Below are positions 1 to 5,061 of a stretch of 5,061 bases of DNA, in pieces. Every line of letters starts with the position of its first letter. Position 1 is the first letter of the stretch. A program made the translations under genes and the position numbers. The stretch is from a virus (lineage: Duplodnaviria > Heunggongvirae > Uroviricota > Caudoviricetes): positions 1-5,061 of IMG/VR virus record IMGVR_UViG_2585427729_000001; one strand, 5' to 3'. The notes beneath the pieces were generated by a model. It made no database searches. It had not been told where the DNA came from and saw only the letters and a program-made list of their open reading frames with translations.

Positions 1-40
1 TGTCAAGTTTCCCCAAAGTTATTCAAAAAGTCAATATTAT
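1..40 (-). promoter_or_regulatory. Late promoter pR' (-35 and -10 hexamers) with the start of the Q-utilisation (qut) region; transcript start lies at or beyond the window edge
   Basis: Read on the minus strand just downstream of the Q stop: TTGACT (plus 29..34), a 17-nt spacer TTTTGAATAACTTTGGG, then GAAACT (plus 6..11). The layout matches my recollection of lambda pR' (TTGACT, 17 nt, TAAATT), with a weaker -10 here. The position immediately 3' of Q is where pR'/qut lies in lambdoid phages. Confidence 0.6.
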
Positions 41-76
41 GCCGTTAATATGTTGCCATCCGTGGCAATCATGGCG

Positions 77-700
77 CTAACGTGTGATCGCATTCAAAAT
101 GTTGTCTGCGATTGACTCTTCCTTGTGGCATTGCACAACCAGAGCGTCATACAGCGGCTTAACAGTGCGTGACCAGGTGGGTTGGGTAAGGTTTGGGATT
201 AGCATCGTCACAGCGCGATATGCGGCGCTTGCTGGCATTCTTGAATAACCGACGCCTTTACATCTTCCGCACTCTTTCTCAGCAACTATCCCCCACTGCT
301 CTGTTTTGGCTATATCAACCGCACGGCCTGTACCGTGGCAATCTCTGCATCTTGCGCCCGGCGTCGCGGCACTACGGCAATAATCCGCATAAGCGAATGT
401 TGCGAGCACTTGCAGTACCTTTGCCTTAGTATTTCCTTCAAGCTTTGCCACGCCACGGTATTTCCCCGATACCTTGTGTGCAAATTGCATCAGATAGTTG
501 ATAGCCTTTTGTTTGTCGTTCTGGCTGAGTTCGTGCTTACCGCAGAATGCAGCCATTCCGAATCCGGCTTGTGATTGCGCCATCCCCATAGCAGCCATCA
601 CATCAGTACCGGAAAGAGAGTCAGAAGCCGTGGCCCGTGGTGAGTCGCTCATCATCGGGCTTTTTGGCGAATGAAATTTAGCTACGCTTTCGAGTCTCAT
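77..700 (-). CDS. Q: Late-gene antitermination protein Q, lambda-type, 207 aa
   Basis: The track ORF 77..733 has an N-terminal extension; the likely true start is the ATG at 700 (MRLESVAKFHSPKSP...), preceded by GAGGGGAAG. The protein matches lambda Q nearly residue for residue as I recall it, including the Cys cluster CRDCHGTG...CGRCKGVG (zinc finger). The stop lies directly upstream of the pR'-like promoter. Confidence 0.93.
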   Translation of the reverse strand: MRLESVAKFHSPKSPMMSDSPRATASDSLSGTDVMAAMGMAQSQAGFGMAAFCGKHELSQNDKQKAINYLMQFAHKVSGKYRGVAKLEGNTKAKVLQVLATFAYADYCRSAATPGARCRDCHGTGRAVDIAKTEQWGIVAEKECGRCKGVGYSRMPASAAYRAVTMLIPNLTQPTWSRTVKPLYDALVVQCHKEESIADNILNAITR

Positions 701-711
701 CGTCTTCCCCT

Positions 712-846
712 CTATCCTTTGCAATGACACCACACTTCAAACATTCGTTTCACAACCTCACGACAGTAGAAGCCGTAAGCATCGCGGGTAAGATCGTAGC
801 GATTGCCATAACGCTGGCGCATATATCGTTCGAATGCTTTGTTCAT
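712..846 (-). CDS. Small hypothetical protein, 44 aa, YlcG-like by position (between rusA and Q); not in the supplied ORF track
   Basis: Hand translation of the minus strand from ATG at 846..844 gives MNKAFERYMRQRYGNRYDLTRDAYGFYCREVVKRMFEVWCHCKG, ending at TAG 714..712. The start overlaps the rusA stop as ATGA, GGAGAA lies a few nt upstream, and the stop is 11 nt before the Q start. Basic, with a C-x12-C-x-C cluster. The position matches the small ylcG ORF between rusA and Q in DLP12-type prophages. Confidence 0.6.
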   Translation of the reverse strand: MNKAFERYMRQRYGNRYDLTRDAYGFYCREVVKRMFEVWCHCKG

Positions 847-1205
847 GTGTTCTCCAGTTCGGTGATTTTTATTCCAAGCCTTCCGCCTGGTACTTTCACA
901 CCACGAATTACGCGAATGTCATCGAATTGCTCGTCGTCTTCCGCAAATCCGGCGTGGATAAGGGAGTCGAGTAAACCTTTCAGGATGTTGTCGAGGTCGC
1001 GGCGGCGGGAGTCTGGAACGTCTGCGATGACTTTGATACGGAGTCGTGATTTGGTGAAAATGTCTAACTTGAGTTGGCGAATGATTTGCTGAACGTCTTT
1101 TCGGTATTTCTGGCCTTTATCGCTGATGTAGTATTGGCCTCCCCGTCTTCGCCAGTAGGTATTCACCGACGGCGGGTATGGAAGCACAAACTGATATTCG
1201 TTCAT
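843..1205 (-). CDS. rusA: RusA-family Holliday junction resolvase (crossover junction endodeoxyribonuclease), 120 aa
   Basis: Protein MNEYQFVLPYPPSVNTYWRRRGG...DVPDSRRRDLDNILKGLLD...GGRLGIKITELENT shares the hallmark RusA motifs with E. coli RusA as recalled (LP-PPS-N-Y-R, PD-RRRDLDN acidic catalytic region, GGRL...ITE) and the same 120-aa length. The start overlaps the ybcO-like stop as ATGA; GGAGGGG lies upstream. Confidence 0.92.
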   Translation of the reverse strand: MNEYQFVLPYPPSVNTYWRRRGGQYYISDKGQKYRKDVQQIIRQLKLDIFTKSRLRIKVIADVPDSRRRDLDNILKGLLDSLIHAGFAEDDEQFDDIRVIRGVKVPGGRLGIKITELENT

Positions 1206-1492
1206 GGCTTAATCTTCCCCTCCTTCAGCAGTATCGCCTGCGTCCTGATCACGCCTTCGAGGTGGTAAAGTCTGGCGTCTTTGTTGTCGAGGTTATGGGT
1301 GCGTCGGTCGATTTCATCGTGACACGCGCTACAAGCCCATGCGCCGATCAGGTCGTCAGGCTTCATTCCCGTTCCGCAAATTCCAGCCATCCGGTAATGT
1401 GCCAGAACTGTAGTTTCAGGGTTGCCATTGCATACGCCGTAAATACGTACCTGGCATTCTCTGCCGCGAGCTTCTTTGCGTAGGTTAGCCAT
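1202..1492 (-). CDS. ybcO: YbcO-like DUF1364-family protein, putative Zn-binding nuclease, 96 aa
   Basis: Protein MANLRKEARGRECQVRIYGVCNGNPETTVLAH...CSACHDEIDRR... has the same length and Cys/His pattern as the DLP12 prophage YbcO that sits immediately upstream of rusA. RBS GGGGAGG lies about 8 nt upstream; TAATG overlap with the preceding gene. Confidence 0.85.
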   Translation of the reverse strand: MANLRKEARGRECQVRIYGVCNGNPETTVLAHYRMAGICGTGMKPDDLIGAWACSACHDEIDRRTHNLDNKDARLYHLEGVIRTQAILLKEGKIKP

Positions 1493-2214
1493 TAAGCAGC
1501 CTCCCCTGTTACTTTCAGCATTCCGTTATCGAGCAGCTTTCTGGTCAGCCACTGTTGACCACACCCGGTGATTTTTGTGGTGAACGATATCTGTATTCCG
1601 TGATTTGTGTTGACCGCTGTTTCTTTCACTGTGAAATAGCCGCGATCCATATATTCCTGCATTGGCACATTGCGCCGGGAACCTGAAGCAATAAGGATTT
1701 TGTGATCGCGCATCCACGCAAACAGTTTGTTTGGACCAATTCCAACAACCTTTGCAAAGTTTCCAATCAAAATTCCGCTGGCCTCGCCAACGCGATCGGC
1801 AAACTCAACTTTAGGTGCGGCAATTGCTAGCTGGTTTTCCAGTTGCATTTTCTGCTCAGCAAGGTCAGCAGCAAGGCGCAACGCTTCTGGTAGCGTTTTT
1901 GGGATATTAACCGCAGCTTCTTCAAGCTCTCGCCAACGGTCAACAAGGCGAGCCGTGAATTCCGGCGACAACTGGGCTACAACGACAATACTGTCTCGCT
2001 TTCCTTGTTCGCCTTCGAATACATACACACAAAAACTTTGATTTAAGCCTAACCCATTGATTCTTCCACAATCCTCAATTTGAGGAAGCCGGATAACACC
2101 ATTTTTAGCCAGCGTTTCGATGGTACGTTTCACATTGTCATGACGCTTACCAACCAACTCAGCGATTTCAATGCTTGTCATTTTTATGGCATTGCCATTT
2201 ATTAACTCATTCAT
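1492..2214 (-). CDS. Phage regulatory protein of the Rha/antirepressor family (N-terminal Rha-like DNA-binding domain plus C-terminal KilA-C/Ant-like domain); Roi-like, 240 aa
   Basis: The N-terminus MNELINGNAIKMTSIEIAELVGKRHDNVKRTIETL is the characteristic Rha-domain signature. The C-terminal half (...FADRVGEASGILIGNFAKVVGIGPNKLFAWMRDHKIL...) resembles antirepressor KilA-C domains. RBS GAGGAAG precedes the ATG; the start overlaps the upstream small ORF by 8 nt. Confidence 0.85.
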   Translation of the reverse strand: MNELINGNAIKMTSIEIAELVGKRHDNVKRTIETLAKNGVIRLPQIEDCGRINGLGLNQSFCVYVFEGEQGKRDSIVVVAQLSPEFTARLVDRWRELEEAAVNIPKTLPEALRLAADLAEQKMQLENQLAIAAPKVEFADRVGEASGILIGNFAKVVGIGPNKLFAWMRDHKILIASGSRRNVPMQEYMDRGYFTVKETAVNTNHGIQISFTTKITGCGQQWLTRKLLDNGMLKVTGEAA

Positions 2215-2383
2215 CGTCTTCTTCCTCGTACATTGAGCTATTCGGATCGCTCATCAGCTCTGCGCAGCAATCGGAGCACACGTGAACTTCCAGCACATGC
2301 AGCTTCTGACCGCAGTTAGCGCACGTTAAAGCTCGCTCGACGCTTTCTTTCTGGTATTGAAGGGTTTGGGATGGGCTAAGCAT
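2207..2383 (-). CDS. ninF: NinF-like small Cys-rich protein, 58 aa; not in the supplied ORF track
   Basis: Hand translation from ATG 2383..2381 gives [58 protein letters not shown], ending at TGA 2209..2207. It has a CxxC...CxxCC putative zinc-binding motif and an acidic tail. GGAGA lies upstream. Size and position (after ninE/ninX, as in the P22 order ninE-ninX-ninF) fit NinF; I also recall lambda NinF as very similar. Confidence 0.7.
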   Translation of the reverse strand: MLSPSQTLQYQKESVERALTCANCGQKLHVLEVHVCSDCCAELMSDPNSSMYEEEDDE

Positions 2384-2733
2384 TATTGGATTCTCCGCAT
2401 CATGAGAAAGACAATCATGGCGGCACGGAGTGGATTGTCATATGCGACACCAACATTCGGTCCGGCATCATCAAACAAGTCCCTTGCGTTGTCTGTGGCG
2501 CACGGCATTGAGGGATTGTCTAAAATTATGCTGATGTTGTTTTCAGTGATAATCGGCCATGCGTCTGCTGGGTTATTGCAGTAGTCGTACCATCGATAAT
2601 TGCCATTTGCTTCATTGCCAACAGACCGTCCATCTGCGTTGTGCGGATAACCTAATGGTTTTGCCCCAACTATCGCTTTAAATACTCGCTTGTTAATTTC
2701 AAAATCACTTAACTGTGAATAATCCATTGTCAT
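2383..2733 (-). CDS. Hypothetical phage protein, about 116 aa, NinX-like by synteny; function unknown
   Basis: ORF in the track as 2383..2769. The probable start is ATG 2733 (ATGA overlap with the ninE stop) or ATG 2727 (better spacing from GAGG). Protein [60 protein letters not shown]... has no motif I can assign to a known enzymatic function. It sits between ninE and the NinF-like gene, where P22-type phages carry ninX. Confidence 0.75.
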
Positions 2734-2906
2734 TTCCTCGCACGATGTCTTAGCCACCGGATATCCCACAGGTGAGCCGTGTAATTGAAGGTTTTTACGT
2801 CAGATTCTTTTGGGATTGGCTTGCGTTTATTTCTGGAGCGTTTCGTTGGAAGGTATTTGCAGTTTTCGCAGATGATGTCGGTGATACTTCGTCGTTGTCG
2901 CCTCAT
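2730..2906 (-). CDS. ninE: NinE, 58 aa, function unknown
   Basis: The track ORF 2730..2996 is over-extended. The true start is likely ATG 2906 ([58 protein letters not shown]), with AGGAGGG 5 nt upstream and an ATGA overlap with the methyltransferase stop. The sequence closely matches lambda NinE as recalled. Confidence 0.85.
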
Positions 2907-3430
2907 GCCGCCCTCCTGACGCCCTGCCCGATCGCCATCAATGCCGCTTTGGATACGGTAGTAAACATCCGTCGAGGACTGATGAACGGTCGCCAAATCA
3001 GCAGCATGGAGCCTTTGCTGTTTCCCTTCTTCTCCAGCCCTGTCGATGGTTCGATAAAATTAATCCGTCCATCAGTGATAATGCGAACTTCGTCGACACT
3101 CTCCAGAGCCTTGCTGAACCATCCGACAGACATATCCTCTGGCACAAGCATCACTACCGTCTGTCGTTGTTGTATGCACTGCTCAGCGGCTTTTTCCACC
3201 CACGGCCTGATATTGCTGTACGGTGGGTTATTCCAGATTGCACCGTGGCTTATCCACTCAGAATTTAGCGCGTCGTCAGCCTCAGTTAGCCAGTGAGCGC
3301 ACAGAGCATTTTTGTCGCTCGCTGCCGAATCCAGCCAGAATCCAAACTCAATATCCAGTGCATCAAAAAGCCAGAGCGGCGTTTGCCAGCAGTCCTTGTC
3401 GTGTGATGGCGTATTTGATTTGATAGTCAT
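2903..3430 (-). CDS. dam: Phage Dam-family DNA N6-adenine methyltransferase, small orphan methyltransferase of about 175 aa
   Basis: Track ORF 2903..3490; the probable start is ATG 3430 ([26 protein letters not shown]...), overlapping the ninB stop as ATGA. It contains the NPPY catalytic motif (IWNNPPYSN) and the N-terminal D-x-W-x-TP signature typical of the phage Dam family. No restriction endonuclease gene is adjacent. Confidence 0.88.
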
Positions 3431-3867
3431 GCAGCCCGATCTCCCCATCGCGCTTTCCATTCGAGAGCCAGTCGCGCTTCGTCTGACCACTTAACGCCAC
3501 GCTCTGTACCGAATGCCTGTATAAGCTCTAATAGCTCCGCAAATTCGCTTACACGCATCCTGCTGGTTGACTGGCCTATTACCACAAAGCCATTCCCGGC
3601 AAGGTTAGGAACAACGTCCTGCTGCTTTAATGCTGCTGTAAAAACGCACTTCCAGCTTTCTGCATCCAGCCAGCGACCATGCCATTCAACCTGACGAGAG
3701 ACGTCACCAAGGCAAGCCCAAAGCTTTCGATTCTGGTCTAAGCTGCGGTTGCGTTCCTGAATGGTTACTACGATTGGTTTGGTTGGGTCTGGAAGAATTT
3801 GCTGTACCGCGTGAATAGCGTTTTGCTGATGTGCTGGAGATCGAATTTCAAAGGTTAGTTTTTTCAT
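3427..3867 (-). CDS. ninB: NinB (lambda Orf), recombination mediator, 146 aa
   Basis: The track ORF 3427..3885 starts at a TTG. The real start is probably ATG 3867 (MKKLTFEIRSPAHQQNAIHAVQQILPDPTKP...), with GGAGAGGGAAG upstream. It matches lambda NinB/Orf as recalled. Confidence 0.9.
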   Translation of the reverse strand: MKKLTFEIRSPAHQQNAIHAVQQILPDPTKPIVVTIQERNRSLDQNRKLWACLGDVSRQVEWHGRWLDAESWKCVFTAALKQQDVVPNLAGNGFVVIGQSTSRMRVSEFAELLELIQAFGTERGVKWSDEARLALEWKARWGDRAA

Positions 3868-3884
3868 GACTTCCCTCTCCCCCA

Positions 3885-3916
3885 AATAAAAAGGCCTGCG
3901 ATTACCAGCAGGCCTG
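3885..3916 (-). terminator. Intrinsic (rho-independent) terminator between ren and ninB, lambda tR2-like
   Basis: The minus-strand RNA would read ...CAGGCCUGC-ugguaauc-GCAGGCCUG followed by UUUUUAUUUGGGGG. The stem is plus 3892..3899 paired with 3908..3915, with an 8-nt loop and a U-tract 3' on the minus-sense transcript. It lies in the only sizeable intergenic gap (3868..3940). On the plus strand no T-tract follows, so it is unidirectional. Confidence 0.75.
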
Positions 3917-3940
3917 TTATTAGCTCAGTGATGTAGATGG

Positions 3941-4231
3941 TCATCTTTTAACTCCATATACCGCCAATACCCGTTTCATCGCGGCACTCTGGCGACACTC
4001 CTTAAAAATCAGGTTCGTGCTCACCTTTCCTTCCCGTTCTTCTCTGGTAGCGAACCGGTAATACACCGTTCGCCAGACCTTACCTTCGATAACCAGAAGA
4101 CCTGCCCGTGCCATTTTAGCCGCGGCCTGATTTATGCTGGTTACTGTTGCGCCTGTTAGCGCGGAAACGTCCTGTGCACAGAAGCTCTTATGCGTTCCGA
4201 GGTAATGAATAATTGCCTCTTTGCCCGTCAT
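3941..4231 (-). CDS. ren: Ren protein, 96 aa
   Basis: Protein MTGKEAIIHYLGTHKSFCAQDVSALTGATVTSINQAAAKMARAGLLVIEGKVWRTVYYRFATREEREGK... matches lambda Ren as recalled in length and sequence. ATGA overlap with the P stop. Confidence 0.9.
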   Translation of the reverse strand: MTGKEAIIHYLGTHKSFCAQDVSALTGATVTSINQAAAKMARAGLLVIEGKVWRTVYYRFATREEREGKVSTNLIFKECRQSAAMKRVLAVYGVKR

Positions 4232-4929
4232 ACACTTGCTCCTTTCAGTCCGAACTTAGCTTTAATTTCTGCGATCTTCGCCAGAGCCTGTGCTCGATTT
4301 AGAGGTCTGCCGCCCATGACAGGAAGTTGTTTTACTGGTTCAGGTATAGTCTCACCACAGTTAATTCGCGCTGTCATACAGGTCAGCTCATCGGCAGCCT
4401 TACGCCGTAATTCCGCGTCAGTCAGCGCATTGGCCCGCATGTTCTGGTACAGGTTGGTAACCAGCCAGTAGTGCGCGTTTGATTTCCACGGATAAGACTC
4501 TGCATCTGGATACAGGCCACGCTTCCGGCAATACTCGTAAACCATATCAACCAGCTCGCTGGCGTTTGGCAGTCCGGCAATAACAGATGCTTCTTCACGA
4601 CACCAGGCAACAAACTGCCCGGGTGATGGCAGGAATGGTCGATTCTGCCGACGGGCTACGCGCATTCCTGCGTTAACCTGTTCCATCGTGGTGATCCCGT
4701 TTTCCCGGAAAGCCAGAACCCACTGGCGGCGGATTTCGTTCAGTTCGTTCTGGTCACGGTTAGCCAGGCTCGCCGGGAAAGTTGCCAGTAACTGGCTGAA
4801 CACACCGTTGATGATCTGCGCTACCTGCTGTACCTGCGGCTTTTCGTCGTACTGTTCCGGCATGTTGTTGGCGATCCGACGCATCTGCTCACGGTCAAAG
4901 TTAACCATCTGTGCGGCGATGTTTTTCAT
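4228..4929 (-). CDS. P: Replication protein P (helicase loader), 233 aa
   Basis: Protein MKNIAAQMVNFDREQMRRIANNMPEQYDEKPQVQQVAQIINGVF... matches lambda P as recalled, full length 233 aa. The start overlaps the O stop as ATGA. Confidence 0.93.
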   Translation of the reverse strand: MKNIAAQMVNFDREQMRRIANNMPEQYDEKPQVQQVAQIINGVFSQLLATFPASLANRDQNELNEIRRQWVLAFRENGITTMEQVNAGMRVARRQNRPFLPSPGQFVAWCREEASVIAGLPNASELVDMVYEYCRKRGLYPDAESYPWKSNAHYWLVTNLYQNMRANALTDAELRRKAADELTCMTARINCGETIPEPVKQLPVMGGRPLNRAQALAKIAEIKAKFGLKGASV

Positions 4930-5061
4930 AAATCCACCCCGTAAATCCAGTCTGTGTTTGTCAAGTCGAGTTTTGGTTTGCTGGCTGTCACGACTGCCTG
5001 TTGCTTGTTACGGTTGATTTCGAGCTGGGTCCACTTGTCGCGGAGTTTGGCCGGGCTCAGC
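4926..5061 (-). CDS. O: Replication initiator O, C-terminal fragment only (5' end lies beyond the window)
   Basis: The minus-strand frame ending at TGA 4928..4926 translates as ...LSPAKLRDKWTQLEINRNKQQAVVTASKPKLDLTNTDWIYGVDL, matching the C-terminus of lambda O as recalled (the P-interacting domain). It runs off the right edge of the window. Confidence 0.85.
   Translation of the reverse strand, partial: LSPAKLRDKWTQLEINRNKQQAVVTASKPKLDLTNTDWIYGVDL

Follow-up and report, generated by a model that had tools for sequence, protein, structure and literature searches.

A nin-region dam gene of a lambdoid Escherichia coli prophage, an ortholog of M.EcoVT2Dam that most likely methylates GATC

Here, we describe a DNA methyltransferase gene in a stretch of 5,061 nucleotides (the window) that forms positions 1 to 5,061 of the Caudoviricetes record IMGVR_UViG_2585427729_000001 in IMG/VR. 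The window carries the early-right region of a lambdoid prophage in reverse, with every gene on the minus strand, and we are quite confident that the gene is the nin-region dam of a lambdoid Escherichia coli prophage, an ortholog of M.EcoVT2Dam whose product most likely methylates GATC and whose role and timing of expression we infer. Its open reading frame (3430..2903, minus strand) runs from an ATG at 3430-3428 to a TGA at 2905-2903 and encodes 175 amino acids in 528 nucleotides, with no internal stop. A first-pass annotation, made from the letters alone, had proposed an NPPY methyltransferase of about 175 amino acids at 2903-3430; re-translation returns these coordinates, to which the strand is now added, and retains both the NPPY motif and the N-terminal D-x-W-x-TP motif. 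The gene and its two motifs are as follows.

2903..3430, minus strand: dam, 175-amino-acid phage N6-adenine DNA methyltransferase, read as the M.EcoVT2Dam ortholog (translation, PF05869, TIGR01712, identity to VT2-Sakai dam)
3218..3229, minus strand: NPPY codons, catalytic motif IV, residues 68-71 (invariant in a 46-sequence alignment and in the Dam proteins of T1 and HP1)
3377..3394, minus strand: DCWQTP codons, N-terminal D-x-W-x-TP motif, residues 13-18 (conserved in the 46-sequence and in a five-sequence alignment)

The search against the PF05869 (Dam) profile that had been suggested for this protein gives a clear and nearly full-length match (E = 7.2e-65, 218.2 bits, profile positions 1-167 of 169), far above the curated cutoff of 28.1 bits. 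The NCBIfam equivalog TIGR01712, "phage N-6-adenine-methyltransferase," scores the protein at 263.6 bits against a cutoff of 97.05 bits, and PHROG 111, "DNA methyltransferase," matches it with an E value of 6.5e-88. PF05869 is the sole family matched in the profile scan, in which neither PF02086 nor PF01555 is hit, and no FxGxG motif is present in the protein. Among 5.8 billion proteins we observe 265 clusters of similar sequences; all 120 of the clusters listed contain PF05869, they originate from many genera of Enterobacterales, and those with a source name are nearly all called phage N-6-adenine-methyltransferase, the remainder being "DNA methylase" or similar. In the alignment of 46 sequences, where family members are 59 to 98% identical to the window Dam, residues T17, P18, N68, P69, P70, and Y71 are invariant, and conservation is at least 90% at D13 and W15. 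The five-sequence alignment, which takes in the more distant T1 Dam and HP1 orf13 (34 to 37% identity) and phage phiEt88, shows no variation at D13, W15, T17, P18, or N68-Y71. Together, these comparisons support placing the dam product in the phage Dam family as a small N6-adenine methyltransferase with an NPPY motif. It is predicted to be a minimal single-domain, S-adenosylmethionine (SAM)-dependent enzyme in which NPPY would form the adenine-binding catalytic site.

Some database clusters depart from this single-domain form. P0001 (233 amino acids, 41 members) is a fusion of Dam and NinE with a frameshift just 5' of the stop, P0024 (235 amino acids, E. coli O55:H7) is a second such fusion with the frameshift at about residue 132, and in P0005 Dam is preceded by a fused segment that carries a precomputed PF05269 (phage CII) assignment. 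All three have the appearance of prophage remnants damaged by frameshift or deletion, or else of errors in assembly where the ATGA joins the two genes.

The predicted structure of the dam product has the class I SAM-dependent amino-methyltransferase fold. As modeled, the fold is that of the NPPY adenine-methyltransferase catalytic domain alone, without a separate target-recognition domain. A sequence search of the PDB with the dam protein returned chance-level matches only (E = 0.17 and 0.71), a Foldseek search of the model against the PDB returned none at an E value of 1e-3 or below, and we found no solved structure for the PF05869 family.

The closest characterized relative is M.EcoVT2Dam, the dam product of the Shiga toxin 2 (Stx2) phage VT2-Sakai (equivalent to 933W L0094), which is identical to the window Dam at 173 of 175 residues and is encoded by a gene of the same 528 nucleotides. 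In the VT2-Sakai genome (AP000422), dam lies at 16989-17516 between a NinB homolog and ninE, and is annotated as "similar to 933W L0094, HP1 Orf13 and T1 M.T1." The ninB-dam-ninE order, the 4-nucleotide overlaps, and the hairpin upstream are shared by VT2-Sakai and the window. M.EcoVT2Dam was reportedly cloned by Radlinska and Bujnicki (said to be in Acta Microbiol Pol, 2001). According to a passage in PMC6602927, which cites Radlinska and Bujnicki 2001, this enzyme "is known to target 5'-GATC-3'," and a statement from Radlinska's group in PMC7139368 places VT-2 among the phages for which a Dam-like activity on GATC "has been shown." Because the window Dam is 173/175 identical to an enzyme reported as GATC-methylating, its target can be read across, and by this homology the adenine of GATC is its most likely site of methylation. 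The first-pass annotation had held that the target could not be read from the sequence; this is correct de novo but is superseded by the near-identity to M.EcoVT2Dam.

Several points weigh against this assignment. The evidence for GATC activity of M.EcoVT2Dam is second-hand, coming through the two citing papers just named (PMC6602927, PMC7139368), and protection in MboI/DpnI assays cannot by itself tell a GATC-specific enzyme from a relaxed one, since a relaxed phage enzyme of another family scores alike (PMC7556043). A discussion passage in PMC10810198 adds that over-produced Dam-like enzymes can methylate off-target. The window Dam differs from the VT2-Sakai protein at S9A and I60V, both conservative, and its structural model is only moderately confident, with predicted local distance difference test (pLDDT) values of 52 to 57 at residues 31-70. 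The E. coli host is already dam+, so that no selective advantage is apparent for a further GATC methylase, and GATC is neither notably depleted nor enriched in the window (15 observed versus 19 to 23 expected). This count was also considered as a footprint of the enzyme and set aside as uninformative, since it resembles those of other 4-mer palindromes in the window.

The dam gene is also far from rare. The 528-nucleotide gene matches 244 phage records at 95 to 99% nucleotide identity, with 80% or more of the gene covered in each, including phage 434, mEp043, mEp213, mEp332, and many Shiga toxin 1 (Stx1)- and Stx2-converting phages, and most of the 30 phage records listed annotate a DNA (adenine) methyltransferase between NinB and NinE. 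It is present in 1,566 of 5,426 complete E. coli genomes (about 29%), with as many as five copies in one genome and with 100% identity in several. A prophage of E. coli strain 19KM2326N is 99.9% identical to the whole window, and RefSeq names its gene "phage N-6-adenine-methyltransferase." Being near-identical to VT2-Sakai dam and annotated in hundreds of phages and about 29% of E. coli genomes, the gene is not new; it is an intact copy of an already known, widely annotated lambdoid/Stx phage module, real but ordinary.

Within its family, the window Dam can be compared with two proteins that are both named as phage Dam enzymes in the literature. HP1 orf13 (M.HinHP1Dam, 173 amino acids; PF05869 E = 7e-75) is 37% identical to it, and T1 Dam (M.EcoT1Dam, 237 amino acids; PF05869 E = 2e-70) is 34% identical and carries a 45-residue N-terminal extension as well as an internal insertion. 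All three share D-x-W-x-TP, NPPY, D99, S101, W104, R122, and K139. Their genomic settings differ, with HP1 orf13 following a MazG-like gene and T1 dam following a helicase module, neither next to ninB. The classical alpha-class Dam enzymes (PF02086: E. coli Dam, T4 Dam, and DpnM) show no sequence-level kinship to the window Dam, which has no PF02086 match, no FxGxG motif, and no helical target-recognition domain and is about 100 residues shorter. The GATC specificity common to phage Dam and classical Dam is reportedly convergent, as put forward by Bujnicki et al. in 2001.

A number of other methyltransferases were considered as possible identities or kin and rejected. The non-specific enzymes Hia5, Hin1523, and Nma1821 are classical Dam-like, with FxGxG and a DPPY motif at residue 194 (PMC3299994), and M.EcoGIX, of SAY specificity, is a plasmid-borne enzyme that modifies single strands. 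PhiOS31_p25 and L24 of phiP27, which represent a relaxed methyltransferase, belong to PF01555, have 352 amino acids, and lie upstream of stx; the non-specific prophage class to which they are assigned together with M.EcoGI and M.EcoGII is characterized by PF01555, a length of about 350 amino acids, and a location downstream of Q near stx or lysis genes, and does not include the window Dam. The 16S ribosomal RNA (rRNA) methyltransferase of Stx prophages described by Koudelka (M.EcoPA8orf6770P/M.EcoGV) is an MT-A70 protein with DPPW whose gene lies close to int, downstream of a PNB-2 partner gene (PMC10810198). Finally, the int-end gene H0075 of VT2-Sakai is a DUF551 protein and no methyltransferase, and M.EcoMIV of sequence type ST131 belongs to PF02086, a family other than that of the window Dam.

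The genes and signals around dam are given below.

3427..3867, minus strand: ninB (Orf recombination mediator), 146 amino acids, the upstream coupled gene (PF05772, E = 1e-54)
3427..3430, minus strand: ATGA shared by the ninB stop and the dam start, also in VT2-Sakai and in Erwinia phage phiEt88 (43% amino acid identity)
3441..3446, minus strand: Shine-Dalgarno-like GGGGAG in the 3' end of ninB, 10 nucleotides 5' of the dam ATG (from sequence, putative function)
2903..2906, minus strand: ATGA shared by the dam stop and the ninE start (from sequence)
2730..2906, minus strand: ninE, 58 amino acids, the downstream coupled gene (PF05322, E = 7e-44)
3882..3915, minus strand: intrinsic terminator hairpin and T-tract in the gap between ren and ninB, at the lambda tR2 position (terminator scan; 34/34 match to lambda and VT2-Sakai)

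The two overlaps claimed for dam, with the ninB stop and with the ninE start, are both present, and each is an ATGA (ninB TGA at 3429-3427 with the dam ATG; dam TGA with the ninE ATG at 2906-2904). They are part of an eight-gene chain at 843-3867 on the minus strand, comprising ninB, dam, ninE, a ninX-like gene, ninF, a KilAC antirepressor gene (ant), ybcO, and rusA, in which four junctions are ATGA, two are TAATG, and one is ATGAATGA; the P/ren junction is likewise ATGA. Since every junction from ninB to rusA overlaps, the ATGA at dam is a general trait of the nin operon or of mosaic junctions and nothing specific to dam. Translational coupling to ninB, as the first-pass annotation had it, thus holds as far as the ATGA overlap is concerned, but the overlap is not peculiar to dam, and with the putative ribosome-binding GGGGAG 10 nucleotides 5' of its ATG, dam translation may not depend strictly on coupling. 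The ninB-methyltransferase overlap of 4 nucleotides is retained in phiEt88, where rusA is also nearby. We additionally note a GATC at 3438-3441, between GGGGAG and the dam ATG and overlapping the end of the Shine-Dalgarno-like stretch (GGGGAGATC), and another at 2930 in the 3' end of dam, 24 nucleotides 5' of the ninE start; both are probably coincidental.

No restriction enzyme is found among the neighbors of dam in the 5-kb window, where the open reading frames matched to families besides dam (NinB, NinE, NinX, NinF, KilAC antirepressor, YbcO, RusA, and Q) are all non-restriction, which bears out, within these limits, the earlier description of the methyltransferase as an orphan. The P gene of the window takes its name from the RefSeq annotation. 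In VT2-Sakai, the annotated nin region is similarly without a restriction endonuclease next to dam. Unlike VT2-Sakai, the window prophage is no Stx phage in the stretch shown, as its P/ren genes and its Q (PF03589) are of the lambda type, and it is also set apart by ninX, ninF, ant, ybcO, and rusA downstream of dam. In lambda (41081-42123 compared), the slot between ninB and ninE is filled by ninC and ninD with the same 4-nucleotide ninB/ninC overlap; these genes are unrelated to Dam (NinC is PAPS-reductase-like), and lambda has no methyltransferase there. The slot thus looks like a mosaic exchange point, occupied by ninC and ninD in lambda and by dam in the window prophage, 434, and the mEp and Stx phages.

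The hairpin and T-tract found by a terminator scan at 3915-3882 between ren and ninB recur exactly (34 of 34 nucleotides) between ren and ninB in lambda, which there is the position of tR2, and in VT2-Sakai. With this hairpin upstream of ninB, an N-dependent terminator precedes the nin genes, dam among them, and the delayed-early expression previously proposed for dam fits such an arrangement, as judged from sequence. A promoter scan gave nothing above shuffle expectation and no candidate upstream of dam. By analogy with lambda, dam would be silent in the lysogen and transcribed delayed-early from pR after N antitermination. A report on the expression of a "CM2 putative Dam" in Phi24B (PMC3342100) was not used, as the methyltransferase gene it refers to is not assignable.

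These elements suggest the following scheme. In the repressed prophage, dam would be silent; upon induction or infection, it would be carried on the pR transcript once N-modified RNA polymerase passes the tR2-type terminator, and it would be translated as one link of the overlapping chain ninB-dam-ninE-ninX-ninF-ant-ybcO-rusA. During rapid lytic replication, the phage Dam could then add to the host Dam, such that progeny phage DNA would be fully methylated at GATC, and this may protect it against methylation-sensitive restriction enzymes that cut GATC and perhaps also keep MutH from nicking DNA that is under-methylated. The probable role of the protein would therefore be to complete GATC methylation of replicating phage DNA.

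An alternative that we consider unlikely is that the window Dam is a relaxed or non-GATC adenine methyltransferase with broad anti-restriction function, like M.EcoGII, Hia5, or PhiOS31_p25. It would account for a predicted catalytic domain that stands alone, for which the reading of four base pairs is not obvious without a target-recognition domain, and the MboI-resistant/DpnI-sensitive outcome is likewise obtained with relaxed enzymes (PMC7556043); promiscuity is moreover described as frequent in prophage methyltransferases in a statement of PMC4659465. However, the known relaxed enzymes that we checked all come from other families (Hia5 is classical Dam-like, L24 and PhiOS31_p25 are PF01555, and M.EcoGIX is plasmid-borne), and the 99%-identical M.EcoVT2Dam is reported to target GATC in the papers cited above. 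In addition, single-molecule real-time (SMRT) sequencing data of strain 95NR1, which has two copies of M.EcoVT2Dam, contain no extra unexplained N6-methyladenine motif (PMC6602927), although the prophage genes were possibly silent. It is highly improbable that Dam is a mis-annotated RNA adenine methyltransferase acting, for instance, on rRNA, as is the case for another Stx-prophage "DNA adenine methyltransferase," given that the window Dam has NPPY rather than DPPW, matches no family other than PF05869, and is encoded in the nin region, which places it outside the MT-A70 rRNA class.

A role tied to recombination, in which full GATC methylation would stop MutHLS nicking and anti-recombination during the action of NinB/Orf and RusA, seems to us similarly doubtful. 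Its MutH component builds on the established link between Dam and MutH, and the placement of dam in a single chain of overlapping genes, with ninB before it and ybcO/rusA after it, is suggestive, as is the persistence of the ninB-methyltransferase overlap down to 43% amino acid identity in phiEt88 with rusA near. Yet the linkage to ninB does not extend across the family, as shown by the locations of HP1 orf13 and T1 dam, and the presence of unrelated ninC and ninD in the same lambda slot with the same overlap makes this position look like a site of mosaic exchange. As all nin junctions overlap, the coupling to ninB has no specific functional message, and we found no experimental data for a recombination-linked role. 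We give an equally low probability to a Dam with broader or different substrates, such as single-stranded DNA, hemimethylated replication or recombination intermediates, or near-cognate sites, which might act with NinB/Orf in shielding recombining DNA from MutH or methylation-sensitive defense. The completion of GATC methylation on replicating phage DNA by an M.EcoVT2Dam ortholog is the reading that we prefer.

Elsewhere in the window, we observe details of gene structure that are separate from dam. The listed GTG start of the NinX-like open reading frame (2383-2769, minus strand; 128 amino acids) would overlap ninE by 40 nucleotides, whereas an alternative ATG at 2733-2731, which gives 116 amino acids and shares an ATGA with the ninE stop, is more plausible. 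A 44-amino-acid open reading frame at 712-846 on the minus strand (MNKAFERYMRQRYG...) shares an ATGA at its start with the rusA stop, and its own end lies 11 nucleotides short of the Q start; we presume that it resembles the small ylcG-type open reading frame that DLP12 carries between rusA and its Q-like gene. The Ren homolog (3941-4231, minus strand; 96 amino acids) has no Pfam match at an E value of 0.01 or below, and its position and the start of its translation (MTGKEAIIHYLG) fit lambda ren, leaving a small gap in Pfam coverage.

As a discovery, the window dam is of little value, being a long-annotated module that has its own NCBIfam equivalog and is reported as experimentally characterized. 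Its 99% identity to M.EcoVT2Dam allows GATC to be assigned as the target, and there is no need to propose a new specificity. It is important, however, to keep this Dam apart from the MT-A70 rRNA enzyme, the PF01555 enzymes, M.EcoGIX, and Hia5, which are of other families and behave very differently. The wider questions belong to PF05869 as a whole and not to this window, namely, why a phage of a dam+ host keeps a GATC methylase and how a domain without a target-recognition domain gains specificity. Under the improbable reading of broader or different substrates given above, the recognition of GATC by a bare catalytic domain, possibly as a dimer or through DNA-shape readout, would constitute a new mode.
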